DNA of 64,000 nt from an uncultured archaeon. Its GTDB lineage: Archaea > Altiarchaeota > Altiarchaeia > IMC4 > SCGC-AAA252-I15. A program made the position numbers and the translations under genes. Shown here one piece after another: positions 28,704 through 47,750 of the stretch (position 1 is the first letter of the stretch; each line of letters opens with the position of its first letter). The stretch is from assembly GCA_902384455.1 (NCBI GenBank), contig CABMCB010000094.1, positions 1 to 64,000 on the forward strand, given 5' to 3'. A model generated the notes under the pieces. That model searched no databases and had not been told where the DNA came from. It was given only the letters and a program-made list of their open reading frames with translations.

Positions 28704-28738
28704 TAATCTCTAAATTAATACATAATAGGTCGAGGTCT

Positions 28739-30698: not shown

Positions 30699-30707
30699 TT
30701 GGATATA

Positions 30708-31265
30708 CTAAGTCCTCTCTTTTTCCCATTGTTCCCATTCTTGTTTTTCTTGTTTTTGTATCTCGTTGAGGCGTTCCTTCTCCTTCTGATCGTCGTGTTT
30801 TCTTCGTGTTCGGGCGGTGGTGGTTATTGCGTCCCATTCATCGGCTATTTTCCTTAGGAAGGTGCTGAATTGCAGGCTTTCGTGTTCGTAACTTCGTCTT
30901 TTGCTTTTGATTGTCCAACGTGTGTTTTTTGGTATTTCTCTTGTTCGGTGGATTAAACCGAATCGGTATAGTTTGGGTATGATGTGTTTGTTGAGGGTGT
31001 TTATGCTGTATTTATTTTTCAGGCAGAATTCGACCTTGTCTTGGTAGGTTACTTCGCCTTTTTCGACGAGAAATTCGACGTATTTTGCCGCTATCTTATG
31101 GCATATCGGACTGTATTCCGTTGGGAAGAGGAATTCCAGAAGGTCGTCTGTGTTCCAGCGGAAGGAGTAGTCCCATATTTTGGCGCCGTATTTTCGTCCG
31201 CCTTTCTCCGGGAAATATAGGGCGTGCCTTGAGGGTATTCCTTTTCCGTTGTGGTTACCCACCAT
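30708..31265 (-). CDS. Uncharacterised winged-helix protein, paralogue 3 (closest to 5325..5828)
   Basis: IPSRHALYFP, FLFP.EY.P, IPKLYRFGLI, ESLQFSTFLRKIADEW. Confidence 0.8.
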   Translation of the reverse strand: MVGNHNGKGIPSRHALYFPEKGGRKYGAKIWDYSFRWNTDDLLEFLFPTEYSPICHKIAAKYVEFLVEKGEVTYQDKVEFCLKNKYSINTLNKHIIPKLYRFGLIHRTREIPKNTRWTIKSKRRSYEHESLQFSTFLRKIADEWDAITTTARTRRKHDDQKEKERLNEIQKQEKQEWEQWEKERT

Positions 31266-31268
31266 AGG
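31237..31268. repeat. 32-bp direct repeat, copy 1 (spans the start of wHTH paralogue 3)
   Basis: ATTCCTTTTCCGTTGTGGTTACCCACCATAGG; 31/32 identical to 47472-47503. Confidence 0.9.
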
Positions 31269-31665
31269 TATCACCGTATCTAGCGTATATCCTGAACCAT
31301 TCTAAGCCGATGAAACGTATCCTGTCTGAGAAAGCCTTTTCCAGATGAACCGTGTATTTCTTGCCTTTACCTCGTTCTCCCTCAACCCGGACTAGCCCGA
31401 ACTTCTCGAGTTTGGGCAATACGACGCTTATCAGCGTGTGGTAGTCAGATCCTACAACCTGCTTGATGTTGTTGCTCTCAATGGACTTGAGCTCAAGCAT
31501 CTGTTTCATGAACTTGAAGGCACAGTCAAACTGCTTCTTGTTGGTTTCTTCCGGGAAGAACAGCTGCATGAACTCCCAGACGCCCATATGCTGCCTCCCG
31601 TCAACCCTCCGTAACAGGTCGTCCTTGATGAATACGCTATCGTTAGCCCTTCGGTTCATTTTCAC
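31255..31665 (-). CDS. Uncharacterised winged-helix protein, paralogue 2
   Basis: LFFPEE, VLPKLEKFGLV, AFSDRIRFIGLEW. Confidence 0.8.
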   Translation of the reverse strand: MKMNRRANDSVFIKDDLLRRVDGRQHMGVWEFMQLFFPEETNKKQFDCAFKFMKQMLELKSIESNNIKQVVGSDYHTLISVVLPKLEKFGLVRVEGERGKGKKYTVHLEKAFSDRIRFIGLEWFRIYARYGDTYGG

Positions 31666-32074
31666 AGATCAATACCCAACTTTGAGCCAGATACTCTAGG
31701 TACTCAAGGAACTTGTCACTTAACCTAATCTCATACTGCATCTTGCTCTTACCCACCTTCTCTACCAAACCAAGGTACATGAGCTTATACAACATGACAT
31801 CCCTACTGCTCCTGCTATGGCTCACCTTACTGGAAAACCTAGCCCAATCATCCTGCGTAAAAGACTTACCCGCCCGCCGATAAGCCACCAGCTCCCTCAA
31901 AAACATCAAACAGATATCAGAAACATAGCTAGGATGATCATGCCACAAAAAAGACACAAAACCACCCAAATCTACGAGCTCCCCGGAATCGAACTTCTCA
32001 GTCAAACCCTTACGAAAAAATAACTTCTCAACCCTCAACTCATTATCCCGGTTACTAGGCGCGTGCTTACCCAT
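31643..32074 (-). CDS. Uncharacterised winged-helix protein, paralogue 1
   Basis: YKLMYLGLVEK, KFLEYLEYLAQSW; TATA-like TTTTATAT about 25 nt upstream of the ATG. Confidence 0.75.
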   Translation of the reverse strand: MGKHAPSNRDNELRVEKLFFRKGLTEKFDSGELVDLGGFVSFLWHDHPSYVSDICLMFLRELVAYRRAGKSFTQDDWARFSSKVSHSRSSRDVMLYKLMYLGLVEKVGKSKMQYEIRLSDKFLEYLEYLAQSWVLICENEPKG

Positions 32075-32159
32075 CCTCCACACACGTGAGGAACACGCAT
32101 ATAAAAACCCAGATCCTAGCAAAATTGACTAATTTTAACTGTCCAGCAAATAACATACC

Positions 32160-35100
32160 ATGACCGAGGATTTTGATTTTAGCACTTTCCTAAACCAGGG
32201 GGCTATAATTGATAACCGCCGGTCATTTAATGAAAAGACAGTAACTCTAAAAAGGGTTTTAGAGAGCCTTGCTAAGGGTTCTGAGGCGTTCAAATGTGCT
32301 GTTGGATACTTTTACATTGAGGGTCTTTCTGAGATAATCAACTCCTTAGATAACTTCAAAGAAATAAAGATTTTGATGGGCAGTGAGACAACGCCAAAAA
32401 CAAAGACAGAACTGATTAATGCATTCAAGAACGGCTTCGATAAAATAGAAAAAAATGAAACGACTATTCCCGCTATCCTACTTTTTCATAAGCTTGTTAA
32501 AGAGGCAAAAACTCTAAAAGTAAAAGTCTACTTGGGTGAAGATGGTAACTTCCAAAGACTACACTCAAAACTATATTTGTTCATAAAAGATAACGAATCA
32601 AAAGAAGCCTTAGATAAGTACAAGGCCGCGGTTGTCGGATCATCCAATTTAACCCCGAGCGGTTTAATCGGCAATACTGAACTTGATGTAATAATTGAAA
32701 GAAGGCCGGATTTACAGTATCTTGAGAAGTGGTTTGACGGTCTGTGGACAATTGGGACTGAGGAATTCGAGAAACTCAGGGTATCTGATGCAATAATTGA
32801 AGCTATCGAAAAGTCGAAGTTTGGGGAGCATCTAAATGAATCGTATACTTACCTAGAACCGGTTGAGTTCTTTACCGTATTAATAAAATTCCTAAAAGCA
32901 GATTATCTCTTTGAAGACTGGAAGAAATCAGGACTGTTCAAATTCCAAGTTATTGACACTATACGGTGTTTACGGCTCTTTAGGGAAAAGGACTATCGGG
33001 GCGTATTCTTAACCTCCTCAGTAGGTTTAGGTAAATCCTATGTGGCCTGCCAAATATCTGAAATACATTTACGCGAAAAAAAGGACGTACTCATAATAGG
33101 TCCAGCAAACCTTGTGCAAAGCGAAGACCAATGGCCGAGGTATCTAAAGGAGTTTAATCTTATTGGGAAAGTCCACCTTGTCTCTATGGGGGCTCTTCAG
33201 GACGATCCAGGCATAGTTTTCAACAAGAGATTTGTCAATTATTCCACCGGTGGAAAAGTTAAACTTGATAGCGAAAACAAATATGACCTCATTATTGTTG
33301 ACGAAGCCCACAACTATCGTAACCCCGATGCTTACCGCACACGCAACCTAAAGAGGATAATAGATTTAAACGGTAAAGCAAAGATACTTTTCTTAACTGC
33401 CACGCCGATTAATACACGCCTAGAAGACTTGATAAACCTGATTAACTTATTCCACCGACCCGGCGCGAATCTTTACTTTGATAAGATAATCCGTGACTTT
33501 AAGGCCATCCTAGGACATTTAGCGACTACTGAATTTGAGGATTTAACCGAATACGAAAGGGGTGAACTGGTTAAATTGCAGGAAGAAGTTGAAAAAGAAT
33601 TGTTTGTCAAATCAACAAGAGAAACAATAAAATCAGATGAAACATACATCCAAGAACTCAAGTATTTTACTGGTGTAGACATAACCAACATACCAGACCC
33701 CACTGTTGAGGGGGAGGTATATGTCCTTCATGAGCGTTACAGGCCCATTGTGAATGGAATTGTAGATTTCATAAATAGCCTAAGTGCAGCACACCTACGG
33801 ATAGTAGACCCCGAGAAGGGTATTAGGTTAGGTGGATTCTTCAAATGGGTGCTTTACAAGAGATTTGAAAGCAGTATCTACGCATATTACCTAACTCTGA
33901 CAAGATTAGCCAAGAAAAACATAAGCATTGAATCTGCAATACAAAACCGAGATATTAAATACCTTGAACCTGAAGACGAAGATGATATCCCGATCACTTT
34001 TGAGCTTGACTTCAAAGAAAATCTTCAAAAAGTTATCGACAAAATAAAACAGGGGAAAGGCGCAGAACACCTAGCAATCTTATCTGAACTCACAAAGGAT
34101 AGGGAACTGATTCAGGAAGAACTGAAAAAATTGACGCCCTTACTCAACAAAAAACAAATATTCGAGGACGACAAAAAACTAGAGAAATTAGAGCAAACAC
34201 TCAGAGAACAAAAAAATAAGAAGATACTTGTCTTTACCGAATACAAAGACACACTAAAAGCAATAAAGCAAGTAATAAGCGAAAATTTCGACCAGGAAAC
34301 AATAAGATTCGTCTCCTCAGACACAAAAAACAAAGAAGGGATAATAGAAAAATTCAACAACAAAAACTCCAACCTTAGAATACTAATAACTACCGACACC
34401 CTATCTGAAGGAGTTAACATAAGCGGGGCGGATATCGTAATAAACTACGACATACCCTACAATCCCGTAAGAATCATCCAAAGAATCGGTCGTGCAACTA
34501 GACTAGACAATCCCAAAGAGGTCCTAGTTATAAACTATAAACCTGATTCGGACATAGACAAAGAGCTTGAATTAGTCTCTAAGATGGATCTCCGAATCAA
34601 GGACATAATCAAATTCGTAGGAGTAGACTACAGAGTATGGATTGACAAAGAAAATGAGGTAAAAAAACTCTTAGAAGAAAGACGAGCAAGAGATAGGGTA
34701 AACTATGCCAAAGTACTAGAAAACATAAGAAACGACGTATGGTCCGGAGACTTCTCAGACCTCGAATCCAAGATACAATACACAAAACCGTCGCTAATCC
34801 TATTACAAAAAGCAATAAACAAATACCACCTGAAAAGAGAGGATATAGAAAAAACACAAGAAATACCACAAAAAGCGTACACCTGCCTGCAAGGACAACA
34901 TAACCTATCTGTATTCTACGGTAATGGAGAAACATTCAACGAAGAGCATCTCTCAAAAATCGACATAAAAGAGACGCGAAAAGAGATAATACTCGAAAGA
35001 GAATTCAAGAACGAATTAGATGACTTTTCAGAGCAACTAAAGAAGGAAAAACAAGAGGAGTTAAGCCTTAGGTATTATAACGACCGGATTGATAGAAAAA

Positions 35101-35375
35101 TCTACGATGTACTAGACATACTCAAAGCCGAGGGGTATACTGAGATATATCCAAAATCTAAGGGGTTTATTGATGTATTATTATCCGTTAAAGACAATTG
35201 TGGGGGTACTACAGAACAAGTTGTAAATAGAATACATAACGATATACGCAAAATATCAAATCAGAATTTAGATGAATGGATAGAGCGTATAACTATGAGT
35301 TTCACAAGAAAACACGTGCAAGAAAAACTAGTCAAAGAATCAGAGCACCGGCTAGCATTAGCACTCATTGAATAA
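32160..35375 (+). CDS. PLD (HKD) nuclease fused to SNF2/SF2 helicase
   Basis: LHSKLY...VGSSNLT; VGLGKS, DEAH, TATP, SEGVN, QRIGR. Confidence 0.92.
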   Translation: MTEDFDFSTFLNQGAIIDNRRSFNEKTVTLKRVLESLAKGSEAFKCAVGYFYIEGLSEIINSLDNFKEIKILMGSETTPKTKTELINAFKNGFDKIEKNETTIPAILLFHKLVKEAKTLKVKVYLGEDGNFQRLHSKLYLFIKDNESKEALDKYKAAVVGSSNLTPSGLIGNTELDVIIERRPDLQYLEKWFDGLWTIGTEEFEKLRVSDAIIEAIEKSKFGEHLNESYTYLEPVEFFTVLIKFLKADYLFEDWKKSGLFKFQVIDTIRCLRLFREKDYRGVFLTSSVGLGKSYVACQISEIHLREKKDVLIIGPANLVQSEDQWPRYLKEFNLIGKVHLVSMGALQDDPGIVFNKRFVNYSTGGKVKLDSENKYDLIIVDEAHNYRNPDAYRTRNLKRIIDLNGKAKILFLTATPINTRLEDLINLINLFHRPGANLYFDKIIRDFKAILGHLATTEFEDLTEYERGELVKLQEEVEKELFVKSTRETIKSDETYIQELKYFTGVDITNIPDPTVEGEVYVLHERYRPIVNGIVDFINSLSAAHLRIVDPEKGIRLGGFFKWVLYKRFESSIYAYYLTLTRLAKKNISIESAIQNRDIKYLEPEDEDDIPITFELDFKENLQKVIDKIKQGKGAEHLAILSELTKDRELIQEELKKLTPLLNKKQIFEDDKKLEKLEQTLREQKNKKILVFTEYKDTLKAIKQVISENFDQETIRFVSSDTKNKEGIIEKFNNKNSNLRILITTDTLSEGVNISGADIVINYDIPYNPVRIIQRIGRATRLDNPKEVLVINYKPDSDIDKELELVSKMDLRIKDIIKFVGVDYRVWIDKENEVKKLLEERRARDRVNYAKVLENIRNDVWSGDFSDLESKIQYTKPSLILLQKAINKYHLKREDIEKTQEIPQKAYTCLQGQHNLSVFYGNGETFNEEHLSKIDIKETRKEIILEREFKNELDDFSEQLKKEKQEELSLRYYNDRIDRKIYDVLDILKAEGYTEIYPKSKGFIDVLLSVKDNCGGTTEQVVNRIHNDIRKISNQNLDEWIERITMSFTRKHVQEKLVKESEHRLALALIE

Positions 35376-35381
35376 TCAAAG

Positions 35382-38300
35382 ATGAGGATACAGGACATCT
35401 TAGGGGGGGGACAAAAACTTGAGGAATTTTTAATAGAAAAAGGCTATAAAGTTGAAACTGAGTATATTGACAAAGAATATCCCTCAGCACTTTTTATTAA
35501 GTTAGATAAAAGACGATTACTAGCAATTATTGAATTATCTAATGAAGAATCTATTAAGGAAATAAAAAATTATTTTCTTATTGATAAAGGATTAACCCAT
35601 TGTTGTTTGATTCTTCCTCAAAAACTGTTATTCTTTAGGAACTTCGGTGAACGAAGATATTTCCTATACTCTCAAAGGACTAGTGATTCAATTTCAAAAA
35701 TCGACAAACTAGATAAAATAAATGATGATTTTGATTTGTTATTCCAAACTCGAGATGTCTCTGGCGACTTTTACGAAAAATTTAGACTTAAACGAGATTT
35801 TCTTGTCAGGCATATACAGAATGATTTTGAGTCTCCAGAAAAATATCTCATTGCTCAAAAAATATTTGATAGAATCTTCTTTATCTATTTTTTGTGTCAT
35901 AAGGGTATAATAAAATTTTCAGATGGTCGTGCTATAGGGGGGAAATCTCTATTTAAAATACTGCTTGAAAATGGCGAATTCACAAAAAATTTAAAAAATT
36001 TATTCCATCTATTCAATGACGTTGAAGGAAAGTCCATTAAGATTGGTGATAATGTTATCTTAGTACCATATCTTAATGGTGGCCTTTTTCGCCCAGATGT
36101 TTTAGAGCTAGATTTAGATATTTCTCTCACAAATAAAGATTGGAATTCTATCCTAGATTTTCTTAATGACTATCATTGGATTATAGAGGACGATATTACC
36201 GTAGCTGTCCACGACGAAGAAAAAGTATTAACTCCCGAGATATTGGGGCATGTTTATGAACGGGGTGTAGTTGAATGGGAGAATATTGGTTATAATAATG
36301 CTGCAGATGAATCTACAGGTAAAAAGTCGATAAGTGAAAGGAAGAAGAAGGGAGTATATTATACTCCCGAAGAGATTACTGACTATATATCTAGAAACAC
36401 AATTTTCCCATATATCCTTGAAAAATTTGGGGGAAAGTATTCGAGTATAGAAGATATCTTGGATATTGGGGATAAATCAGATTTAGAAGAATTAAAAAAT
36501 ATTTCATTAAATCTGAAGATATTAGACCCTGCATGCGGTAGTGGGGCTTTTTTAATAAATGCGGCCGAAATTTTGTTCTATCTTAATGCAAGAATAAATT
36601 CAAAGCTGGGTATAAAACAGAGATATTATGACATTAAACTTGATATTGTAACAGAAAACATATATGGTGTTGATATACTGCAAGGATCTTCAGAAATATC
36701 AAAGTTACGACTATGGTTATGGTTGATAGCTGATTATGTTGACGTAGTAGATATCAAAGCATTACCCAACATCGAGTATAACATCCGTGTAGGGAATAGT
36801 CTCGTTGGATGGATAGATGAAAAATTGGCCCAGATACCATTAAGGAGCCCACTAACAGATGAGATAGTGGGAATATTCAAAGGACTTAGGGTATACTCAA
36901 ATAATCAAGATACGCAAAAAATTGAAAAAGCTAGAGCATTATTAGGGGATAATGAATGGACCTCAAATAACCCTACCCATCCATTAGAGCGGTATATAGA
37001 AGCATATTCACTTCTCTACTCGATATATAGGAAATCTCATGGGATTAAGGCTGAAAATTTAAAGGGCATAATCGAAACTATTCGAAAAGCAATTTACTCG
37101 AGTATAAGTCCCGGATATTACGAGTATGTTAATGACCGCTTAAAAAAAGACCATATTCGCCCTATTCCGTATACTGAATTTTACCAATTAAAACCATTCC
37201 ATTGGAGAGTAGATTTTGGGGATATTATCAAGAGGGGGGGATTTGATATAGTAATTGGAAATCCACCTTATGTCGATGCACAAACCCAATCATCTAAATA
37301 TGAAAAAACAACGATTAAGGCGCTGTATTTGTCATACACAAATAATTGTGATTATTATGTTCCGTTCATTGAGCTAGGTGCAATAAAACTATGCAGTAAA
37401 GACGGTAGGTTCTCATATATCTGCCCAAATAATTTTTTAAAGCTAGAGTATGGTAAAAACATAAGGAAGCTATTAGAAGGGAGAGTGTATGAGATAGATG
37501 ATTTTGGAGCAAACCAAGTATTTTATGGGTCAGATATCACTAACTATTCCCTTTTGATATTTTCTAGAGGCAAATGTAAGATTCTGGATTATCGATATTT
37601 TAAGTATAAAAAAGATTTTGAACCTATCCTTAAGTCGGGTAGATTAAACTTTTCTTATCCAGCTGATGAATTTGAAGATAATATTTCATATCATTCATTA
37701 TATCAAGATTATAAGGGATTTGTACTTTTTAATGAAAGTCCCTGGATTTTTTTAACAAAGCTTGAGGAGAAATATCTCCCAAATATAATAACAGATAATA
37801 TTCCATTAACTGAAGTTATTGGTGCAAAAATCCATGAAGGAAGTAGTACCGGAGATGATGATTTCTATCTCTTAGAGGATTGTAAAAACAAGAAGGGTTT
37901 GATTGAGGGTTTTTCTAAACTGAAAGAGGAGAGGATTACTATTGAAAAAGAGTTATGTAAAAAATATGTTAAAAGAATATCTGAAGACTTCAGGATAGTT
38001 GATGAAAATATGTTCTTGGTATTTCCATATAAAAAACAGGGCGACGGATACATTTCCCTCTCCGAAAAAGAACTAAAAAAATACTCGATTGGTTATCCAT
38101 ATTTCAAGGAATTTAGGGGTAGACTGGAAAAACGAGAAGACATTAAGAAGAAATCAAATTTTGAAGACACGTGGTTTCTATTCTCTGCAGCGAGAAGTTT
38201 AGAGTATTACGATAAAAACAAGATTATTATGAAATTTACCTCTAAAGACAAACCAAAATTTGCTATCGATAAAGAGGGATACTTTCATAATGCTTCGATT

Positions 38301-38591
38301 AATAACATCACGATAGAGGCATCTATTGATATCCCGGTAGAAGTGTTATTCAATATTCTAGTTTCAGATTTTACAAAATATTTTATTGCAAGGTTTGGTA
38401 CTTTTCTCAGGGGGGGGTATATTAGATATGAAGAACGTTTTTTGAAAAATTTACCAATACCAAAAAAGATAAAGACGAAAAGATGTACGGATATGAAAAC
38501 TAGTTATGGATATGATTCCTTATTTGATAAATTTATTGAAAAATTTTTAGAAGAATGGATTTCAGATAACGGTAATTCAGAACTGCAATAG
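35382..38591 (+). CDS. Eco57I/type IIG-like N6-adenine DNA methyltransferase with TRD
   Basis: YLNGGLF, GVYYTP, LDPACGSGAF, GNPPY. Confidence 0.92.
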   Translation: MRIQDILGGGQKLEEFLIEKGYKVETEYIDKEYPSALFIKLDKRRLLAIIELSNEESIKEIKNYFLIDKGLTHCCLILPQKLLFFRNFGERRYFLYSQRTSDSISKIDKLDKINDDFDLLFQTRDVSGDFYEKFRLKRDFLVRHIQNDFESPEKYLIAQKIFDRIFFIYFLCHKGIIKFSDGRAIGGKSLFKILLENGEFTKNLKNLFHLFNDVEGKSIKIGDNVILVPYLNGGLFRPDVLELDLDISLTNKDWNSILDFLNDYHWIIEDDITVAVHDEEKVLTPEILGHVYERGVVEWENIGYNNAADESTGKKSISERKKKGVYYTPEEITDYISRNTIFPYILEKFGGKYSSIEDILDIGDKSDLEELKNISLNLKILDPACGSGAFLINAAEILFYLNARINSKLGIKQRYYDIKLDIVTENIYGVDILQGSSEISKLRLWLWLIADYVDVVDIKALPNIEYNIRVGNSLVGWIDEKLAQIPLRSPLTDEIVGIFKGLRVYSNNQDTQKIEKARALLGDNEWTSNNPTHPLERYIEAYSLLYSIYRKSHGIKAENLKGIIETIRKAIYSSISPGYYEYVNDRLKKDHIRPIPYTEFYQLKPFHWRVDFGDIIKRGGFDIVIGNPPYVDAQTQSSKYEKTTIKALYLSYTNNCDYYVPFIELGAIKLCSKDGRFSYICPNNFLKLEYGKNIRKLLEGRVYEIDDFGANQVFYGSDITNYSLLIFSRGKCKILDYRYFKYKKDFEPILKSGRLNFSYPADEFEDNISYHSLYQDYKGFVLFNESPWIFLTKLEEKYLPNIITDNIPLTEVIGAKIHEGSSTGDDDFYLLEDCKNKKGLIEGFSKLKEERITIEKELCKKYVKRISEDFRIVDENMFLVFPYKKQGDGYISLSEKELKKYSIGYPYFKEFRGRLEKREDIKKKSNFEDTWFLFSAARSLEYYDKNKIIMKFTSKDKPKFAIDKEGYFHNASINNITIEASIDIPVEVLFNILVSDFTKYFIARFGTFLRGGYIRYEERFLKNLPIPKKIKTKRCTDMKTSYGYDSLFDKFIEKFLEEWISDNGNSELQ

Positions 38592-38626
38592 TCTGTCACA
38601 AGTTAACTCGAGTATATTATTTGTTC

Positions 38627-39712
38627 ATGCAAGTACATGAACAAAAGATACGTCTTGAGCATAAGCGGGCTGTTATCCATTCTTTTTCGCCTTATCTGGC
38701 AACTTTTCCGGATGAGATTCCGAAGTACGTTATCGACAGGTTTCTGCCTCCTGCGGCGTTGAGGAAGAATTGCGGCGGCAAGAAGCTGATTCTAGACCCA
38801 TTTTGCGGCTCTGGGACCACGCTCGTCGTGGCGGCCGAGAACAATGTGAAGGCTATTGGGGTGGATTTTAATCCTATGGCGGTTTTGATTTCGAACGTCA
38901 AGTGTCGTCCTTTCTGTGAGCGGGATTTTGCGGATGCCGAGGCGCTGCTTGAGGAGATCAGCGGGTGTTTGCCTTTCTCCGGCGGCAGAAACATCGATTT
39001 GTCGGTGGATTTGGATAAGGTGAAGTACTGGTTTCACTCCAAGGTCGCGGATGACCTATTTACGTTGAGGGACGTTATCATAGGATGCAGGAACGAGAAG
39101 GTCAGGAACCTGGCGCTGGTAGTCTATGCCGTCACTTTGAGGGCCTGCAGCTATGCAAAGAATGACACTCTTTCGAGGGCGAGGAAGACGTACGCGATAA
39201 TCGAGGCCTCTCGCGCCAATGCCTTCAGGGATTTCGCCGGGCGGTTCGAGAAGGCGTTGACGTTGAAGCGGGATCAGAAGTTGCTGGTCGCGGATAATAT
39301 GGCTGTGGAGGGGGATTCTAGGCGTCTTTTCTTCGATGACTGCTTGTTTGATTGCATTGTGACGTCGCCGCCTTACATAGCGAGCATCAGCTATTCGACT
39401 CCTTTCGATTTGTTCTACGTCTTCATGAACCAGCGGATTGAGAAGAAGGGGTTCATCAACGGCGAAGACAAGGAGAAGTTCTTCGACGGCATGAAGCAGG
39501 CGTATAACGAGATGTTCAGGGTCTTGAAGAAAGACGCTCCGTGCGTGATGGTCGTCGGCGAGCGGGAGGTGAAAGGCACGATAGAACACATGGTTGAGGC
39601 CGGATTCGTCCTTGAGGAGAAGTTGTTTTACGACATCAAAGGCGGATGCCGCGGCTTTTTCCACGGAATAAAGAGGCTGAAGGAATACGTGCTGGTGTTC
39701 CGTAAGCCTTAG
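38627..39712 (+). CDS. Amino (probably N4-cytosine) DNA methyltransferase
   Basis: H...PY.A.F, DPFCGSGTT, TSPPY. Confidence 0.88.
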   Translation: MQVHEQKIRLEHKRAVIHSFSPYLATFPDEIPKYVIDRFLPPAALRKNCGGKKLILDPFCGSGTTLVVAAENNVKAIGVDFNPMAVLISNVKCRPFCERDFADAEALLEEISGCLPFSGGRNIDLSVDLDKVKYWFHSKVADDLFTLRDVIIGCRNEKVRNLALVVYAVTLRACSYAKNDTLSRARKTYAIIEASRANAFRDFAGRFEKALTLKRDQKLLVADNMAVEGDSRRLFFDDCLFDCIVTSPPYIASISYSTPFDLFYVFMNQRIEKKGFINGEDKEKFFDGMKQAYNEMFRVLKKDAPCVMVVGEREVKGTIEHMVEAGFVLEEKLFYDIKGGCRGFFHGIKRLKEYVLVFRKP

Positions 39713-40005
39713 AATTCAGCCGAGAAGTCGGGGTTGATGAGGCCTATTATTTTGTTGGCCTCGTTTATCGTTTCTTCCTTCTTGCAGGGGTCTTTGAGGT
39801 AGATTTGTATCGTGCCGGAGGTGAAGAACAACACCGAGGCGTCGGGTAGGTGGACTATAACCCTGTTGGTTATGTCCGGGTTGTATTCGGCTGAATACTT
39901 CTCGTTCAGCAACTGATAGAGCTTGTCAAGGTTGATCCGATTCTTTATCCTGCCCTTCAGCATCATACCGCATACTTTGTAGTCCACTTCGACACCCCCA
40001 CTCAT
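39709..40005 (-). CDS. Single-repeat TATA-binding-protein-like protein (half-TBP)
   Basis: INLDKL...AEYNPD...VIVHL...VLFFTSGTIQI matches one TBP repeat (LDL..IA..EY.PE.FPGL.YR..LIF.SGK.V). Confidence 0.75.
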   Translation of the reverse strand: MSGGVEVDYKVCGMMLKGRIKNRINLDKLYQLLNEKYSAEYNPDITNRVIVHLPDASVLFFTSGTIQIYLKDPCKKEETINEANKIIGLINPDFSAEF

Positions 40006-40050
40006 AGTCTAAGTTCTTGGTTATCCCGTGACTTGTCGTTTTAGCTAGTC

Positions 40051-40485
40051 CTATCGGTAGGCATCTATGTTCTTCTCCACCGTCCCTAGGAATTCCTTAA
40101 CCTCCCTTATCTTGTCTTTGGTTATCATGACGTCGCCGAAGTTCTCCCAATGGCCTCCCTTCTTCTTGGCTTCTTTGATTCGTATGAAGGGTTTTCCGTA
40201 CTGGGATATGAAAGTGTCCAGGAACAGGATGTGGTCTTGGTCGAGCCTGACCCTCTTCTGCCATTTCCCGTTTCCGTTGAAGAAGTAGATTATGGAGTTG
40301 CCTAGGCGTTCGCTGTTGACCCTGCCGATGGACTCCAAGTAGTCCATGTGTTTTTGCACTGTCGCCCAGGCAAGGTTAGTTCCTTCTGATACTTGGTTTG
40401 TGGATGCCTTCTTGTTCTTCGCAAGGAAGCACTCTATCCGCTTTCTCGCCTCGTCCTCGACTTCGTTGTGAGTCGGCTCTTTCAT
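40051..40485 (-). CDS. wHTH regulator fused to PUR/PC4-like (DUF3276-like) domain
   Basis: STNQVS..TNLAWATVQKHM..LE..GRV; LFLD...GKPFIRIKEAK...VMI....IREV; start placed at MKEPT with a TATA-like box upstream. Confidence 0.7.
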   Translation of the reverse strand: MKEPTHNEVEDEARKRIECFLAKNKKASTNQVSEGTNLAWATVQKHMDYLESIGRVNSERLGNSIIYFFNGNGKWQKRVRLDQDHILFLDTFISQYGKPFIRIKEAKKKGGHWENFGDVMITKDKIREVKEFLGTVEKNIDAYR

Positions 40486-40608
40486 GAGATAGATTGCGCT
40501 CTCGCGATATAAAGAACTTCTCTCAGAGAGCATGGGAAAAGTTTCATTTTTCCTGTGGACATCGACGAAACCCACAAGTGAACCAACTGCATCATATGTT
40601 ACCTCAAA

Positions 40609-41022
40609 ATGGACAACAAACTTTTCACCAGAACCGTATGGAAGCCCGAGAAGGGCGAATACATCGTGGAGATAGAGGAAATGGGGAAGATGCTCGTGGA
40701 CACGCCCTACGGGAAACGCAAGGCCGTTTTCATCAAAGTGGGCGGGGAGCCGTACGTCTGGTTCATAAACCACTACGGCAAGGTGGTGGAGAAGGCCATA
40801 GAAACGCGGCTTGACGGCATACTCTCTAAGAGGAAATCGGGCAAGGCGCTTGTCAAGGTCACTGTGGATGAGGCGGACGGGAGGAAGCTCTATGACATTG
40901 AGGAAGTCAAAGCTACGCCTGAGTCCATCGTCGTTTCCGTCGGTATATACGTGAGCGACGGCGAAGGCGAGGACTACCACCTCATCCACTCTGACACGAT
41001 ACCCGTTGGAGGTAAGAAATGA
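40609..41022 (+). CDS. Hypothetical protein, possible OB-fold ssDNA-binding protein
   Basis: WKPEKGE...TPYG...beta-rich pattern reminiscent of phage/plasmid SSB-like proteins; first gene of the T4SS-like operon. Confidence 0.6.
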   Translation: MDNKLFTRTVWKPEKGEYIVEIEEMGKMLVDTPYGKRKAVFIKVGGEPYVWFINHYGKVVEKAIETRLDGILSKRKSGKALVKVTVDEADGRKLYDIEEVKATPESIVVSVGIYVSDGEGEDYHLIHSDTIPVGGKK

Positions 41023-41345
41023 AGGAAAAACTTTGGATCACGATGTTTGCGGTGATGGTGATGACGCAGATTGCGGTCGCGGGTCTGGGGGACATAAACG
41101 ACCCCAGCCAGGGGATAGCGATAAACGAGTTCCTCTGGAACGTCATAAACCTCATACGGTTCATAGCCGCCGCAGTCTGCGTACTCGCCCTAAGCTGGGC
41201 TGGCCTAGTCATGATATTCGGCCTCTTCGGAGGTACGGAGAACCACGCCAGAGCCAAGGAAATAGCAGGAGCCGCGATACTAGGCCTCATCCTGGTTGTG
41301 CTGGCTCCGAGCATAGTGAATTGGATAGTCAACGGGATTCACTGA
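41019..41345 (+). CDS. TrbC/VirB2-like pilin
   Basis: Signal peptide, then two hydrophobic helices linked by ENHARAKE..AILGLILV. Confidence 0.75.
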   Translation: MKEKLWITMFAVMVMTQIAVAGLGDINDPSQGIAINEFLWNVINLIRFIAAAVCVLALSWAGLVMIFGLFGGTENHARAKEIAGAAILGLILVVLAPSIVNWIVNGIH

Positions 41346-41365: not shown

Positions 41366-42784
41366 ATGAACTTTCGAGCCCTCGTAGTCTTGGTCTTTCT
41401 GTCCCAGGCGGCGGCAGCACTCGGCTATACGAACCTGCCTCAGATGAACCTGACAATAGCCACGCCGCCCTACCAAGTAGTCTGGGGCTACAACCTGGTT
41501 CGCGGCAATTCCACGAGCGGGCCGCCCAACGGGACCGTCCTCTCCCAGGGTTCGGGGTTCACGGACGCGTGGGTGAAGATACTGGCGTTGGACAAGGCCG
41601 TATTCGACAGCGAGATCAACTCCTCGTACGCGTCAAGGCAGGGGCAAGTGCTCTCCAAGTACGGCTACACGCCAGTCTGTCCGCCCTCGGACTACTGCTG
41701 GCCAAGCTGCATAGGCACGCGATACGAGTACGCAGGCTCGACAGGAAGATTCACCCTCTTCGCCAACGGGCAGTTGCAGGGCAGCAACGCGATACAGGGC
41801 TACAGCATTCCTGACACGGCAACTCAATTGAATCTTAACGCGCAACTAAACGTGGACACGCGGTGCAGGAAATACAAGCTCAGGTTGCGCGTAGATCCGA
41901 ACACCGGGCTGAGGTACTGCAATGAACGCTACTTCGGCGTGGTGACGTTCAGCGGGGTCGTAAGCGATAAGGCAGCCTACGGTCTCTTCGACCTTAAGCC
42001 GCAGGCTAACGTTTCCTTTCAGCGCATCGCCCAAGACGTTTCCGAAATCAGCCGAGGAAGGCTGACTGTCAGAACGGCAGCGCCCTACTCCAATCTCACG
42101 TTCATTCTGGGAAACAACTCCCTGTCCTACTCCGGGAACGCCTACGACGTCGGCTACTACCTACCCGACTACAACCTCCTGAGGGTAAGCACATACGGCC
42201 TCTCGAGGATAACGCAGTACGGCCTATTCTCAAACGTTTCAAGAGCCAGAGAAAACGGGAGCGGGGTCGTGGTTACAGACGTGGATTTCACTTTGACGTA
42301 TGGCGAAACCAAGGCCCTACTTCAAAGGAGGATATGTAGGCTCATCGTCGAAGACTTGTTCAAGCGGCAGTACGTGCTCGAAAATCTCTGTCCAACGGAC
42401 TGGAAGCAGCCTGTAATCGACGCCTCGACCAACGGCAGGATATTCGCCGACAACGGCGAAGTAAACATATCCGTATCTTTGGCTTACAACGGAACCCAGA
42501 TTCCGGGCAGACGGGTGTTTGTTCGCTACGCGAATAGACAATACGCTAAGACTACGGACTCTAATGGCAAGGCGGACTTCGTCTTCAACGCGGAGTATCC
42601 AAACAATAGGGTAGAGGTCGAGTTTCCCGGCGACGGCGTTTACCTAGGTTGCTCCAAGACGGTCTTGATAGCCGTTTCAGACTCCGAGGTGAAAGATCTG
42701 TTGGCTCAGATACTGCCTGCCTTTCTGGTATTCGTAATATCGGTCTACGGGGCGTATCGGATGCTCAAGTTCTGGGGGTTATAA
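41366..42784 (+). CDS. Secreted, C-terminally anchored surface protein with Ig-like domain
   Basis: Signal peptide MNFRALVVLVF, Cys pairs, TTDSNGKA..FPGDGVY Ig-like motif, C-terminal TM. Confidence 0.75.
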   Translation: MNFRALVVLVFLSQAAAALGYTNLPQMNLTIATPPYQVVWGYNLVRGNSTSGPPNGTVLSQGSGFTDAWVKILALDKAVFDSEINSSYASRQGQVLSKYGYTPVCPPSDYCWPSCIGTRYEYAGSTGRFTLFANGQLQGSNAIQGYSIPDTATQLNLNAQLNVDTRCRKYKLRLRVDPNTGLRYCNERYFGVVTFSGVVSDKAAYGLFDLKPQANVSFQRIAQDVSEISRGRLTVRTAAPYSNLTFILGNNSLSYSGNAYDVGYYLPDYNLLRVSTYGLSRITQYGLFSNVSRARENGSGVVVTDVDFTLTYGETKALLQRRICRLIVEDLFKRQYVLENLCPTDWKQPVIDASTNGRIFADNGEVNISVSLAYNGTQIPGRRVFVRYANRQYAKTTDSNGKADFVFNAEYPNNRVEVEFPGDGVYLGCSKTVLIAVSDSEVKDLLAQILPAFLVFVISVYGAYRMLKFWGL

Positions 42785-43690
42785 ATGAGGAAACTAGTTC
42801 TAGCTGTCCTGAGTATAGCGTTCGCCACCTCCACAGCCTCAGCGGACTTGATAGGGGACTTGGGAAAGACTCTTGTCGAGGCGGTGTATACGCCAGCCTA
42901 CAACGCAGTATACGCCCTGCTCACGGCGTTCATGCAGCTTGTTTTGGATATCCTAGTCTGGAACCCTCCGCTCGACTCCGCATATGACGCCTGGAGCATA
43001 GTGCGGACCGTCATAACGTCGATGTACCTCGTGGTGTTGACGTATGCAGGCCTCAAGTTGATGGCGGGAACGATGGTCGGGGAGAATGAGCGGTCTACGC
43101 TGAAGAAGTGGGTCGGCGGCTCGATACTCTCCCTACTCCTCGTGAACATGTCCTATGTCTTGTACGAGTCGGTCATCCAGCTTAACGTGGGCCTGTCTGC
43201 GCTCGTCTACAAGCAGCCAAACATCCAGGGGTTCATAGCGGCATCCGCCGCCTTCATCATACTCCTCTCCTTGCAGACCTCAATCGTGATGCTGGTCATC
43301 CTCCTATTGATAGTGAGGACGCTATTAGTTTTGGTCGGCGTGGTACTGTTCCCTATAGGCATCTTCCTCTACTATCTCCCGCCGACGAGAAGGTTCGGGA
43401 AGCTGATAATCACCGTCATATTCGCCAACATATTCATCCAGTTCTTCGAGGTCCTATGCCTCAGGGTCTGCCTGGACATGTTCGGCGCCATCGGCGGAAG
43501 CTTCACTAGCTCAGTCTTTAACACCATGTTCGGCATGGCGATGATGCTCCTGATGCTCTTCGTGCCTCTAGTGTCCTACGGCTTCGCTACTCTGACAGGG
43601 ATGATACTACAAAAGGCCACGGAAGTCGTAACAAACGTCGTCCCCATGCCCGTACACCTTGACACGTTCAGGACGAGGGGGAAGCAGTAG
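42785..43690 (+). CDS. VirB6/TrbL-like polytopic membrane protein
   Basis: Multi-TM, LLIVR.LLV.VGVVLFPIGI..Y.LP.T pattern; T4SS context. Confidence 0.75.
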   Translation: MRKLVLAVLSIAFATSTASADLIGDLGKTLVEAVYTPAYNAVYALLTAFMQLVLDILVWNPPLDSAYDAWSIVRTVITSMYLVVLTYAGLKLMAGTMVGENERSTLKKWVGGSILSLLLVNMSYVLYESVIQLNVGLSALVYKQPNIQGFIAASAAFIILLSLQTSIVMLVILLLIVRTLLVLVGVVLFPIGIFLYYLPPTRRFGKLIITVIFANIFIQFFEVLCLRVCLDMFGAIGGSFTSSVFNTMFGMAMMLLMLFVPLVSYGFATLTGMILQKATEVVTNVVPMPVHLDTFRTRGKQ

Positions 43691-44551
43691 ATGGCGTACG
43701 ACATACCGCAGGAATTGAAGTACAAGGAGATATTCGCCTACGGCATGACCTTAAAGCAGTTCATCTACGGGGCGATATTCGGCATGGCGGCGGTCCTGAT
43801 ACTGTCGCAAGACAAGATTCCGTGGGAAATAGGGGCGGTCGCCGGAATCGTCCTCATGGGCATTGCGGTGCTCCTCGGATTCTTCGACTTCGACAAGAAG
43901 ATAATCGAGTTCATATCCTACCTGCGAACCCCGAAGAACATAACGTTCCTGACGAAGGAGGCCTCCCAGTTCCTCGGCGTAAAGTACCTCAAGGACTCGG
44001 CGATAGTGCTCAAAGACGGCACCCTCGTTGGCGTACTCAAAGTAGAGGCCATAAACTTCTCCATCCTCTCCAAGGAGCAGAAGGACGCGGTGATACACAA
44101 CTTCATGAACTTCCTGAACTCTCTGGGCTTCAGGATACAGATCATAATGCGGACGGTGACATTGGACATGACCCCGTACCTTAGGAACATGGAATCCAAG
44201 ACGTCCGCCAACGCAGAAGGCGGCCTCGCCGAGTCCTACAGCCTAAAGGAGTTTCTCCAAAACTACGTCCAAACGAACAAGGTGACAGACAGGGTATTCT
44301 ACATAGCAGTGCCCCTGAGAAACGCAGGCCCTTCCGTCAAAACGATCAGGGGATCGGGTAAAGAGTCGCTTGCGTTCAGGGAGCTTGAGGAGAGGATGGA
44401 AGTCGTCCGCGAGTGGCTCTCAAAGTCGATGCTCAACTCAAAGAGACTGGACAACACAGGCCTTCTGGCGTTCTTGGCCTCGTTCTTCGACGACGGCGTT
44501 AAGCTGGATGCGGGATGCACAAGTCCCTACACGGACTATAAAGGTGACTAG
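43691..44551 (+). CDS. PrgI/VirB3-like protein with soluble VirB4-associated domain
   Basis: YDIPQEL.YKE.FAYGMTLKQF, 2 TM, VEAINF.ILS.EQ...FLNSL.F.IQI. Confidence 0.8.
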   Translation: MAYDIPQELKYKEIFAYGMTLKQFIYGAIFGMAAVLILSQDKIPWEIGAVAGIVLMGIAVLLGFFDFDKKIIEFISYLRTPKNITFLTKEASQFLGVKYLKDSAIVLKDGTLVGVLKVEAINFSILSKEQKDAVIHNFMNFLNSLGFRIQIIMRTVTLDMTPYLRNMESKTSANAEGGLAESYSLKEFLQNYVQTNKVTDRVFYIAVPLRNAGPSVKTIRGSGKESLAFRELEERMEVVREWLSKSMLNSKRLDNTGLLAFLASFFDDGVKLDAGCTSPYTDYKGD

Positions 44552-44552
44552 G

Positions 44553-46874
44553 ATGGTCTGGAAGAAGACGCCTAAGGAAAAGACTGACGAGGAGCTCGCG
44601 GAGGAGGCGAGGATAGAGGAAGGCCAACGTATGAACAGGATAATATTCCCCAACCTCATCCAGAACCGGATGAGCGAGGTCAAGATAAACGACAGATGGA
44701 ACAGGCTGATTTCTGCGGACGGCTACCCAAGAAGCGTCAGCGACGGCTGGCTTGACAAGCTGGTTTCCATGTCCGGCAACTTCGACATGGCGATACACAT
44801 AGAGCCTCTCGAGCTGAACAACGTAATGAACCAACTCAACAGGGAACTTAGAAAGCAGGCAAGCGACATAAACACCCTATCCAAGAAGGGCGAGATAATC
44901 CCGACGTCCCTCCAAATCCAGCACGAGGACACCAAAAGCGTCCTACGCGTCATCCAGAAGGGCGAGGAAAAGATGTTCAACGTATCGATATACGTCAGCC
45001 CCAAGGCCGAAAGCCTGGAAGAACTCGAACTGCTGACTAAAAGAGTCAATGCGACGTTGAACAGCGTGATGATAGTACCTAAGATACCGACGATGCGAAT
45101 GCTCGACGGCCTGAAAAGCATCCTGCCTTTCGCGCAAGACAAACTCAAGATAACGAGAAACATCACTTCCTCGGCGTTGGCCGCCTGCTTCCCCTTCACC
45201 ACGTCGGGCCTCAAGATAGAGGATAATGGCGTGATGTTCGGCGTAAACTCGAACAACAAAATCCCCGTGATAATAGACCCGTTCGAACTCAACAATCCCA
45301 ACGGGCTAATCCTGGCTACGTCAGGCGCGGGCAAGAGCTTCTTCGTCAAGATATTCGAGATACGGGAGCTATTGCAGGGCGTAAACGTCATAAACCTAGA
45401 CCCACAGGGCGAGTACACCAAACTCACCGAAGCCTACCACGGGCAGTCAATCAAGATATCCAAGGACTCGGACACCGTCATAAACCCCTTTGACATGATG
45501 GGCATGGACTACGCGGACAAGATAGCTTCGCTGCATTCGCTGATGCACACGATAGTTGAGGACATAACCTCGCCGCAGCAGGCCCTCCTCGACGACGCAT
45601 TCAGGAGAATCTATCTCGAGGCGGGGATAACCGAGGAGAAACACACGTGGAACAACACGCCGCCCACGTTCAGCGACCTCTATTCCGTGATCAAGGGGAA
45701 GGAGTCGGACGAAAACCACTTTACTCGGGCCTCGGCCATGGCGTTGACTAACCGCCTCAGGATGTTCACCGAAGGGTCGCTCAAGTTTCTGAACCAGCAG
45801 ACGGACTTGGACTTCGACAACCGCATGGTGACGTTCGACATAAGCCAGGTGCCTAAACTCGCCAAACCCGCGATGATGTACACAATCCTGGAGTACATAA
45901 TGCACAAGATGAAGCATGACATGAAGCGGAAGATATTCGTCATAGACGAAACTTGGCTGCTCCTACAGCATCCGCAGGCCGCAGAACGGATATTTGAGAT
46001 AGTCAAGACTAGCAGGAAATACAACATGAGCTTCATCCTCATAACTCAGGAGGTGAATGACCTCCTGAGTTCACAGGCCGGAAACTCCGTTCTCGCCAAC
46101 ACAGCCTGGAAGCTGCTCCTAAGACAAGACCCCTCGGTAATCGACTCCGTATCCAAGACGTTCAAGCTCAACTACGGCGAAACCATGCTGTTGATGAACG
46201 CCCAACCCGGCGAAGGGATACTCATGGCGTACAACAACCACATACCGTTGAAGGTCATCGCCTCCAAGAGGGAGTACGACATAGTGACGACTAAGCCAGA
46301 AGACCTACTCAAGCTGGAGCCTAAGACGCAGCCGCAAAAGCTGGAAACTTTGGAAGAGCCCAAGAAACGGTTCGACATAACAAGAAAACTCCACTTGAAA
46401 AGCGAGTTGACGCCAGGGCAGATAGACATACTCAAACGGAGCGGCTTCAAGGAAATACGGGACCCCAGTTTTGTCAAAGGACGCGGGCCGGTGTATCTTG
46501 TGAATAACACCACCGTAGAATCGGACGAACACTTCATCCTACGGCAGCTCGTCTACGACGAAATCAGGAAATACACCGGGGACTTGACGCACAACTTCAC
46601 CAAGGAACCGGACATAGTATTCAAGACCCCAGAAGGTAAAGCCATCGCAGTCGAGATAGAGACGGACAAGTCCCCCAAGTCCAAGGAGCAACTGGAGCTG
46701 AAACTGAGCATACTACAGAAATACGACGGATGGTTCTTCATACTCACAAACTACGAGTCCTTCCCCCACTACGGAACCTACGGGGAAACGATAACCCGGA
46801 CAAAAGTCCCGGAGAAGATCAAGTCATACTTCAGGACTCCCGGAAACGAACCAAACCCGGAAACGGCAACCTAA
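44553..46874 (+). CDS. virB4: VirB4-family ATPase with C-terminal PD-(D/E)xK-like domain
   Basis: ATSGAGKS, LDPQGEY, INPFD, VIDETW, SRKYN, ITQ; tail EH..L...EPDIVF...AVEIET. Confidence 0.9.
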   Translation: MVWKKTPKEKTDEELAEEARIEEGQRMNRIIFPNLIQNRMSEVKINDRWNRLISADGYPRSVSDGWLDKLVSMSGNFDMAIHIEPLELNNVMNQLNRELRKQASDINTLSKKGEIIPTSLQIQHEDTKSVLRVIQKGEEKMFNVSIYVSPKAESLEELELLTKRVNATLNSVMIVPKIPTMRMLDGLKSILPFAQDKLKITRNITSSALAACFPFTTSGLKIEDNGVMFGVNSNNKIPVIIDPFELNNPNGLILATSGAGKSFFVKIFEIRELLQGVNVINLDPQGEYTKLTEAYHGQSIKISKDSDTVINPFDMMGMDYADKIASLHSLMHTIVEDITSPQQALLDDAFRRIYLEAGITEEKHTWNNTPPTFSDLYSVIKGKESDENHFTRASAMALTNRLRMFTEGSLKFLNQQTDLDFDNRMVTFDISQVPKLAKPAMMYTILEYIMHKMKHDMKRKIFVIDETWLLLQHPQAAERIFEIVKTSRKYNMSFILITQEVNDLLSSQAGNSVLANTAWKLLLRQDPSVIDSVSKTFKLNYGETMLLMNAQPGEGILMAYNNHIPLKVIASKREYDIVTTKPEDLLKLEPKTQPQKLETLEEPKKRFDITRKLHLKSELTPGQIDILKRSGFKEIRDPSFVKGRGPVYLVNNTTVESDEHFILRQLVYDEIRKYTGDLTHNFTKEPDIVFKTPEGKAIAVEIETDKSPKSKEQLELKLSILQKYDGWFFILTNYESFPHYGTYGETITRTKVPEKIKSYFRTPGNEPNPETAT

Positions 46875-47296
46875 AACCAAAAACAATTAGAACGCCAATC
46901 AAAGCCAAACCGCTGTTCAATCTACAACCAACTACAACAGAAACGCCCAAAACAACAAACAAAGCCCAACCAAAGACTTTCAGAAAATGTATATTCCTCC
47001 TCTAATATCCTGGCTCGCCTACAGCCGCCTAGGACAGAAGCGGCTCAGAACCTATTGAAACACCAATAGCCCGGGGGGAAATACGCATTAAAACACGTCT
47101 TACACGGTGCAACATCAGGCCGACACTTTGTTGTGGTGGAGCGTCTGTTTGCTCTGGTGCGACTTAGGTTGTTGGTTGAAACACATGGTTTACCGGATAT
47201 AGTCTGGGCGCACCCGTTTATGACTTGTTCGTTTTGGGCTCCACCGCTTTTTATTTTAATGTGTTTTAATAGGTATGGTAGTTTAGGAAAGAGAGA

Positions 47297-47344
47297 ATTA
47301 CACACAGTGTATAATACTCGCCAGTATTACACACAGTGTATAAT
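47297..47344. repeat. Two tandem 19-bp near-palindromes ATTACACACAGTGTATAAT (29-bp period)
   Basis: Copies at 47297-47315 and 47326-47344; the whole block is itself an inverted repeat. Confidence 0.9.
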
Positions 47345-47471: not shown

Positions 47472-47503
47472 ATTCCTTTGCCGTTGTGGTTACCCACCAT
47501 AGG
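47472..47503. repeat. 32-bp direct repeat, copy 2
   Basis: ATTCCTTTGCCGTTGTGGTTACCCACCATAGG, one mismatch to 31237-31268. Confidence 0.9.
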
Positions 47504-47667: not shown

Positions 47668-47750
47668 GCGGGGGTGCCGGAGTGGTCAAACGGGCAGGGC
47701 TTAGGACCCTGTGGCGAAGGCCTACGCGAGTTCGAACCTCGTCCCCCGCA
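47668..47750 (+). tRNA. tRNA-Leu(TAG)
   Basis: GCGGGGG/CCCCCGC acceptor stem, CAGGG-CT-TAG-GA-CCCTG anticodon arm, long variable arm, GTTCGAAC T-loop; CCA not encoded. Confidence 0.97.

Follow-up and report, generated by a model that had tools for sequence, protein, structure and literature searches.

The stretch of DNA analysed in this work (the window, 64,000 nucleotides (nt) of contig CABMCB010000094.1 from an uncultured archaeon of the Altiarchaeota) carries a mobile module with genes of a type IV secretion system (T4SS), and within it a short intact open reading frame (ORF) whose product corresponds to one repeat of the two-repeat TATA-binding protein (TBP). This ORF, called here the half-TBP gene, is flanked on one side by a convergent gene for a DNA methyltransferase and on the other by a co-oriented gene for a winged helix-turn-helix (wHTH) protein, beyond which an operon reading from a pilin gene to a VirB4 gene departs in the opposite direction. 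The whole arrangement lies in a segment of 16.2 kb bracketed by two copies of a 32-nt direct repeat; the coordinates of all features are collected in Table 1. We describe the half-TBP and its relatives, the two short DNA elements that accompany them, and the part that the protein may play in the expression of the module.

The assignment to the TBP family was reached by profile, sequence and fold. Pfam family PF00352 (TBP) was matched with 30.1 bits, above its gathering cut-off of 22.9, residues 8-85 of the half-TBP covering positions 1-76 of the 85 in the profile, and it was the sole Pfam family found at E ≤ 1. Archaeal TBPs were the only hits when the sequence was compared with the proteins of the PDB (E about 8e-4, with both TBP repeats matched) and again when the family profile was used at E < 1e-3; hhalign placed the family on the C-terminal repeat of a two-repeat TBP alignment with 96.6% probability (E 5e-10). 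In the AlphaFold2 model, built from 16 family sequences, the mean predicted local distance difference test score (pLDDT) was 87.6 and the elements followed each other in the order S1-H1-S2-S3-S4-S5-H2, which is the topology of one TBP lobe. When this model was submitted to Foldseek, the nine PDB matches at E ≤ 0.001 were all TBP chains or TBP-containing complexes; the listed ranks 1-43 were of these two kinds throughout (TMq up to 0.72, root-mean-square deviation about 2.1 Å), the first other protein stood at rank 44, and among viral models the TBP-like proteins of giant viruses came out on top. A first-pass annotation made from the letters alone had described an intact 98-codon ORF matching one TBP repeat and had suggested comparing it with TBP, the N-terminal domain of RNase HIII and DUF3378. 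The description is borne out by the Pfam score, the lobe fold and the hhalign result, while the two alternatives gave no Pfam match at E ≤ 1 and do not occur among the listed fold and profile matches.

The half-TBP belongs to a family of equally short proteins. A word-indexed search of 5.8 billion proteins yielded 16 relatives (58-100% identity, 67-144 amino acids (aa)), and a profile search raised the number to 27 (67-165 aa), annotated at most as 'hypothetical protein'; among 79 candidates there was no longer relative. In an exhaustive HMMER comparison with 1.84 billion representatives, 12 clusters passed E < 1e-3, three of them even E < 1e-10; four of the 12 were ordinary two-repeat TBP-like proteins at E > 6e-5. 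Three further clusters of this set (P0019, P0020 and P0025), long and repetitive with unrelated Pfam matches, were regarded as spurious, and a locus (L015) with an unrelated 309-aa ORF that merely contains the word FFTSGTIQ was set aside. At the locus itself there is no space for a second repeat, since the end of the methylase gene overlaps the half-TBP ORF by 4 nt and the wHTH gene lies 45 nt away on its other side; two canonical two-repeat TBPs are encoded elsewhere in the host genome, on contigs C71 and C32. The ratio of non-synonymous to synonymous substitution (dN/dS) was determined for 15 pairs of loci, pairs with locus L005 being left out: it was 0.06-0.22 in the five pairs with computable dS, and in the other ten dS was saturated with dN at 0.09-0.31. 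The gene is evidently under purifying selection, and by these several lines it is a functional stand-alone gene with a single TBP lobe as its predicted product.

The length of that product is more likely 92 aa, from GTG 39987, than 98 aa. This is because position Val7 is Met in 15 of 23 relatives and Val in 7, with residues ahead of it in only 6-8 of them, because a GGGGGTG-like stretch resembling a Shine-Dalgarno sequence precedes GTG 39987 in the window and also in most of the aligned loci, and because the genome-wide match to the family profile spans 39712-39987 and so begins at this very codon.

Canonical TBP contacts TATA DNA through the Asn of QNIV, the Phe of FPG, the Phe of [LI]F.SG and the Thr of TGA, and its EYNP[ED] segment touches TFB/TFIIB (TFB, transcription factor B). 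The half-TBP was compared at these positions with the four repeats of the two host TBPs, to any of which it is identical at 14-16 of about 81 aligned positions, and conservation was scored over 23 family members. The Asn of QNIV is replaced by Gly13 (Ser in 21 of 23 members), F-P-G by T46-N47-R48 (N47 and R48 in all 23) and T-G-A-K/R by Y69-L70-K71; the Phe of [LI]F.SG is kept as F61 (22/23). By this generally known list of contacts, one of four is retained (F61) and three are changed (S/G13, T46 and Y69), as the first-pass annotation had stated for the Phe of IF.SG, the Asn of NIVA, the Phe of QFPG and TGAK. Compared with the host TBPs, the stirrup loop between S3 and S4 lacks two residues, and the EYNP[ED] segment preceding it is retained (Y41 in 23/23, P43 in 22/23 and E/D44 in 23/23). 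The polar residues within the strands are nearly constant (R48, S57, T65 and Q67 in all members, H52 and Y69 in 21 of 23), and residues 17-23 form a stretch rich in Lys and Arg. The fixed polar residues alternate along the strands and align with the DNA-facing positions of TBP; since the helices must cover the other face, we infer that the half-TBP works through its concave face, which has been rewritten rather than lost.

The gene neighbourhood is conserved, too. It was followed in eight loci, namely the window and L005, L009, L010, L011, L012, L013 and L014, after removal of duplicates (L008 repeats L005, and L009 repeats L006). The order is the same in each: the DNA methylase gene, the half-TBP gene, usually the wHTH gene, and the divergent operon from pilin to VirB4. 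The first gene of this operon, orf137, and the pilin gene are adjacent to the half-TBP gene in all eight loci and the methylase gene in seven, the eighth (L012) being a contig that ends before it. The wHTH gene is found in six; at L009 and L010 the half-TBP gene is directly divergent from orf137 across 280-350 nt of non-coding DNA (558-908 in L009 and 313-591 in L010). The spacers of these two loci have in common a TATA-like CGATTTATAT stretch. Thus the proposal that the half-TBP follows a wHTH regulator and lies divergent from a transfer operon is confirmed in the window by the identification of pilin, PrgI-like and VirB4 genes, and the arrangement of a single TBP domain beside VirB4 recurs in seven further loci. 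The wHTH protein gave ArsR/MarR-like matches under the curated cut-offs, and its fold model (from an alignment of five rows; pLDDT 49.1) was unusable.

Alignment of the intergenic DNA of seven loci (L014, nearly the same as L005, was excluded) revealed two occurrences of one short element. The DNA that separates orf137 from the wHTH or half-TBP gene has ACTTGT.G.T as its sole invariant run, which contains ACAAGT on the orf137 strand, and upstream of the half-TBP gene GAC.AGT is the sole invariant block outside the start region (7/7). The common core ACWAGT hence precedes the half-TBP gene and the transfer operon alike, in the same orientation relative to the gene and in seven of seven loci in each case, and it is kept at both sites in L009 and L010, where a wHTH gene is missing from this place. 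The element was at first considered to be GACWWGTC, an 8-bp perfect palindrome; this was dropped, only the 6-bp core being invariant. The palindrome TCTCTGAGA, which abuts the TATA-like box of the wHTH gene, behaves differently: it is exact in four of the five wHTH-bearing loci of the alignment and degenerate in both loci without wHTH. This pattern would suit two regulators with two operators, the palindrome going with the wHTH protein and ACWAGT with the half-TBP; ACWAGT is assigned to the half-TBP because this is the factor always present, the wHTH gene being absent from two loci.

Table 1 Positions of genes, DNA elements and repeats of the half-TBP module in the window.
Feature	Position (nt)	Strand	Remarks
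Half-TBP gene, single-repeat stand-alone TBP domain	39709..40005	minus	intact ORF, 98 aa from ATG 40005, zero internal stops
Site 1, core ACAAGT	40574..40579	plus	reads towards orf137, 29 nt before ATG 40609; 7/7 loci
Site 2, CGACAAGTCA	40029..40038	minus	core ACAAGT at 40036-40031, 43 nt before GTG 39987
TATA-like box, CTTTATAT	40507..40514	minus	centred about 26 nt before wHTH ATG 40485; putative promoter
Palindrome TCTCT-N-AGAGA, TCTCTGAGA(GA)	40519..40529		abuts TATA-like box of wHTH gene
Inverted repeat GGAAAA-N7-TTTTCC	40535..40553		in divergent intergenic region
N6/N4 DNA methyltransferase gene	38621..39712	plus	convergent with half-TBP gene, 4-nt overlap; adjacent in 7/8 loci
wHTH (ArsR/MarR-like) gene	40051..40485	minus	144 aa; 45 nt upstream of half-TBP ORF, co-oriented
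orf137, first gene of divergent operon	40609..41022	plus	no family found; adjacent in 8/8 loci
VirB2/TrbC-type T4SS pilin gene	41019..41345	plus	PF18895, 1.5e-10
Gene for 472-aa protein	41366..42784	plus	N-terminal hydrophobic leader (by eye); no family found
Gene for 301-aa membrane protein	42785..43690	plus	many hydrophobic stretches; possible VirB6-like role, from position only
Gene for PrgI-like protein	43691..44551	plus	match below Pfam cut-off
VirB4/TraG-type ATPase gene	44550..46874	plus	774 aa; C-terminal extension of about 150 aa
Left 32-nt direct repeat	31237..31268	plus	31/32 identical to right copy; candidate attachment site
Right 32-nt direct repeat	47472..47503	plus	165 nt before tRNA-Leu
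tRNA-Leu (anticodon TAG)	47668..47750	plus	downstream of VirB4; same tRNA kind follows VirB4 in L005

The reading that we favour, to which we would give a little under an even chance, is that the half-TBP is a DNA-binding factor which acts through the face of its sheet, probably as a dimer, and controls the module through ACWAGT. The concave β-sheet face would bind DNA, and two copies would most likely form a symmetric dimer rebuilding a TBP-like saddle; a prediction of the two-copy complex, run without controls, gave a score of 0.25 with the mark at 0.42 and weighs neither for nor against this. The target would be the ACWAGT elements before its own gene and before the transfer operon, not a TATA box, and their occupation would switch transcription of the module; the wHTH protein, where present, would act via the separate palindrome beside its own TATA-like promoter. 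The analysis establishes the gene as real, its TBP fold and single-domain state, the synteny, the altered contact residues and the conserved cis-elements; binding to DNA, dimerisation, the pairing of protein with element and contacts to TFB or RNA polymerase, if any, are inferences. A more specific form of the proposal, which seems to us rather improbable, makes the half-TBP a homodimeric TBP whose symmetric saddle reads the non-TATA, nearly two-fold symmetric ACWAGT, so that the mobile module would possess a private promoter-recognition factor. The first-pass annotation had likewise put forward a homodimeric factor of altered specificity, with a decoy for TFB/TBP as its alternative.

Two distant metagenomic relatives, P0021 (142 aa) and P0022 (165 aa), are of some relevance here. 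Their identity is 27-31%, and each consists of one TBP-like domain, whose Pfam TBP score is slightly under the cut-off, and a tail. In P0021 the tail is similar to the DNA-binding domain of NikR, which is of the ribbon-helix-helix type (E 0.014). Ribbon-helix-helix domains are dimeric DNA binders, and P0021 is possibly a natural fusion of a half-TBP with such a domain; the two relatives would speak weakly for the favoured reading.

Several points weigh against control through ACWAGT. With three of the four classes of TATA-contact residue replaced, minor-groove binding of the TBP kind cannot be assumed; the stirrup loop is shortened, and the core of the protein is only mildly basic (median net charge +2, median isoelectric point 8.6). 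Support for the element would come down to positional conservation in seven related, non-independent loci: CSACAAGTYR occurs in the window twice versus 0.71 expected, which is not significant as 15 of 100 shuffles reach two, and GACWWGTC three times versus 2.66 expected, that is, without enrichment. The fixed orientation of ACWAGT speaks against recognition by symmetry alone. Its binding partner could also be the wHTH protein or some factor of the host; the contigs of L009 and L010 measure about 1.7 kb, and their genomes may carry a wHTH gene at another place. TBP-like folds also serve outside transcription, as described in passages of the sources for the N-domain of RNase HIII (PMC3597702) and for Rep_trans nickases (PMC13107129).

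The last point leads to a different, and in our estimate unlikely, explanation, in which the half-TBP is an accessory of transfer that binds or bends DNA (or a single-stranded or hybrid nucleic acid) at an intergenic origin of transfer and helps to process DNA or to hand it to VirB4 in the manner of bacterial relaxosome proteins, without transcription control. The module would have room for such a protein, as neither the 16.2-kb segment nor the related loci showed a recognisable relaxase, replication protein or integrase, and the divergent intergenic region contains inverted repeats; besides, TBP-like folds process DNA ends in Rep_trans/Rep-Arvir, some of which have a wHTH domain, according to the same passages of PMC13107129, and the N-domain of RNase HIII is a single TBP domain in those of PMC3597702. 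Yet no match to Rep_trans (PF02486), DUF7845 or DUF3378 was obtained at E ≤ 1 and none is present in the listed Foldseek ranks; TBPs themselves are the closest relatives by every measure; Y69, the sole conserved Tyr aligned to a DNA-facing position, gives way to Phe in 2 of the 23 members; and the element stands before two genes, oriented to them as promoter or operator elements are. An adaptor role, with DNA recognised by the wHTH protein or a host factor and the half-TBP binding the wHTH protein, TFB or a transfer component as a co-regulator while making no DNA contact, we regard as still quite doubtful. It would account for the co-oriented position 45 nt downstream of the wHTH gene in six of eight loci, for the replacement of the TATA-contact residues and for the retained EYNP[ED] segment; it fits poorly with the two loci in which the half-TBP stays in place without a wHTH gene, and with the polar residues that are conserved best, which belong to the strands and not to the helices.

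Origin clearly within the TBP family, loss of the TATA-contact residues and carriage on a mobile module are likewise compatible with a decoy which titrates TFB or competes with the host TBP, re-routing or damping host transcription for the benefit of the element. We consider this improbable: nothing ties the half-TBP to TFB and its stirrup loop is shortened, and the tight, conserved placement by its own cis-element and operon suggests local, not global, action. As for a remnant or artefact, either a truncated two-repeat tbp pseudogene, which the first-pass annotation had named as the outcome that would overturn it, or a chance ORF, short length is all that could be said for it. Relatives at 51-78% identity are all short, the full set spanning 67-165 aa, no longer one was found, the flanks are occupied, selection is purifying and the fold confident, and such an explanation is refuted to the extent that sequence data allow, its chance being in our view close to nil.

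The canonical archaeal TBPs (PDB 1AIS/1PCZ and 2Z8U, and the two of the host) share with the half-TBP the Pfam family and the topology of the lobe, provide its best sequence, profile and fold matches, and have in common with it the EYNP[ED] segment and the Phe of [LI]F.SG. They differ in having two lobes, the half-TBP having one repeat only, in the residues Asn, Phe-Pro-Gly and Thr-Gly-Ala where the half-TBP has S/G, T-N-R and Y-L-K, and in being core genes, whereas the half-TBP is carried on a patchy module (3 of 61 genomes).

The premise that a stand-alone single TBP domain is unheard of was too strong, as such domains are a known kind, published from 2013 on. Brindefalk et al. (2013, PMC3597702) describe, in the passages concerned, 'monopartite TBP-domain proteins' of 82-136 aa from Thermococcales, for which a TBP-lobe fold is predicted and no function is known, and a distinct TbpA in Halobacteria. 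The half-TBP has each of the features by which monopartite proteins are defined there: a single TBP domain, a length below 150 aa, no second domain adjacent and a large distance from the host TBP. To the Thermococcales proteins, compared by description only, it is alike in being a stand-alone domain of about 90-100 aa from a euryarchaeal-type archaeon. No protein bearing a source name stands among the 27 relatives or the 12 HMMER library hits; the word 'plasmid' does not occur in its main text, and the passages concerned contain no link to a gene neighbourhood, a cis-element or a mobile element.

A likeness of logic only, which serves as a precedent for the favoured reading, exists with the Sulfolobales: their Ced and Ups genes for DNA transfer are under the common control of TFB3 (passages of PMC9905601), here too a general-factor paralogue devoted to a DNA-transfer system of T4SS descent. 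In contrast to the half-TBP, TFB3 derives from TFB, not from TBP, and is chromosomal, not shown to lie within a mobile module. We take TFB3 to be a shortened TFB. Rep_trans/Rep-Arvir proteins, as portrayed in passages of PMC13107129, also combine a TBP-like fold on archaeal mobile elements with wHTH, there as a domain and here as a neighbouring gene, but they are large two-lobed enzymes with a catalytic Tyr; given the negative profile and fold matches and the Phe that may replace Tyr69, the half-TBP is not assigned to them, though the analogy is worth retaining as a lead. Nor is it placed with the N-terminal domains of RNase HIII (DUF3378), being a stand-alone protein that does not match them. 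The large subunit of poxvirus VITF-3 and VETF-l resemble it as element-encoded, strongly diverged TBP-fold factors with non-TATA targets, and differ as proteins of eukaryotic viruses with two lobes inside larger polypeptides (passages of PMC12917281); VITF-3 was the nearest Atlas cluster outside PF00352 (0.82), which is taken as a lead only.

TBP is thought to have descended from a single lobe working as a dimer. To our knowledge, neither a partner nor a site nor a role is known for any stand-alone TBP lobe yet described. In the published main texts, supplements lying outside the search, we came upon no link between a stand-alone TBP domain and a module of T4SS type, and we did not find in print the half-TBP family, its place by a pilin/VirB4 operon and a methylase gene, its rewritten sheet face or the ACWAGT element. 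The half-TBP is therefore a natural test case for the abilities of a lone TBP lobe, offering three handles in its fixed gene neighbourhood, its rewritten but conserved sheet face and the short invariant element before the two transcription units that would be its most plausible targets, and the family turns an evolutionary conjecture about a single-lobe ancestor of TBP into a testable question. If the homodimer were real, it would be a living counterpart of the hypothetical TBP before duplication, with its DNA site already identified. Few regulators of archaeal DNA-transfer machines are known, and the module would contribute to them a general-transcription-factor derivative that is encoded by an element.

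Distribution and context argue for mobility. Half-TBP genes were found in three of 61 genomes of the phylum, that of the window included, all of one family, and in one of the 13 genomes that are at least 90% complete; searches with tblastn of plasmid and phage sets gave no match, IMG/VR viral contigs contained no relatives, and PHROGs and PADLOC had no match. The G+C content of the window drops to 0.33-0.45 between 24 and 40 kb. The 32-nt repeat occurs in two copies only in the genome and has sharp borders, and the segment between the copies holds the whole module; the repeat is not present in the other module loci, and L005 has no comparable flanking pair. Of the features of integrative and conjugative elements, T4SS-type genes, a candidate repeat pair and a nearby tRNA-Leu are there, integrase and relaxase being those not recognised. 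We conclude that the module is laterally mobile and that the borders of the island are candidates only. The island setting proposed at first thus agrees with the presence in 3 of 61 genomes, the tRNA-Leu in two genomes, the 32-nt repeat pair and the variable restriction cargo.

This cargo, restriction and defence genes lying beyond the methylase gene, varies from locus to locus. It comprises GmrSD, a Cas4-like nuclease, a PLD-helicase and an Eco57I-type (type IIG) enzyme in the window (24000-38600), type I restriction-modification (R-M) genes in L005 (11400-17250, from ORF translations by eye), type I R-M genes with a KwaB-like gene in L014 (4080-10350) and NERD with type III R-M genes in L013 (5800-12500). 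The DNA beside the conserved methylase gene is a hot spot for differing restriction and defence genes.

The VirB4 gene of the island has a more common paralogue. A VirB4 about 40-44% identical to the island copy is encoded in 45 of the 61 genomes and in 12 of the 13 of high quality, also in the genome of the window itself (G000:C92:22172-24373, L031; a second locus is L032). It is accompanied by a PrgI-like gene and was found in none of the 13 genomes of families f7-f9; within one order of the phylum nearly every genome has this VirB4/PrgI-like system. The system has the look of a domesticated core of the Ced/Ted kind, and the island copy is a rare second version: VirB4 of island type (77-79% identity) was seen in G000, G043 and G050 only. 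The surroundings of the common paralogue, examined at two loci over about 10 kb, contain no half-TBP gene. In G050 (L030, C3:200190-201746) the island-type VirB4 is 79% identical and has lost its first 254 residues or so, and no other module gene is present within 16 kb; here, in a third genome, the module has decayed to a remnant.

The C-terminal extension of the island VirB4 (window positions 46400-46874), about 150 aa without Pfam match and conserved in L005, displays by eye a D...E.E..K pattern like that of PD-(D/E)XK nucleases, and could provide a DNA-cutting activity otherwise lacking in the module.

Short TBP-domain proteins were also noted in the ESM Atlas, in clusters of 76-104 aa with PF00352 in 51-92% of members. 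Two of these clusters have about 50-71% of their placed members in viruses (Uroviricota), a lead only; such proteins may be common on archaeal viruses, and the literature would appear to understate the number of element-borne half-TBPs.

Further repeats lie near the right end of the island. A 26-nt exact direct repeat is found at 47738-47763, overlapping the 3′ end of tRNA-Leu, and at 47927-47952, 189 nt downstream, and looks like the scar of another integration at this tRNA gene. Non-coding DNA between VirB4 and the right 32-nt repeat contains tandem units of 25 nt with the palindrome TACACACAGTGTA at 47294-47347 and also at 46974-46998.

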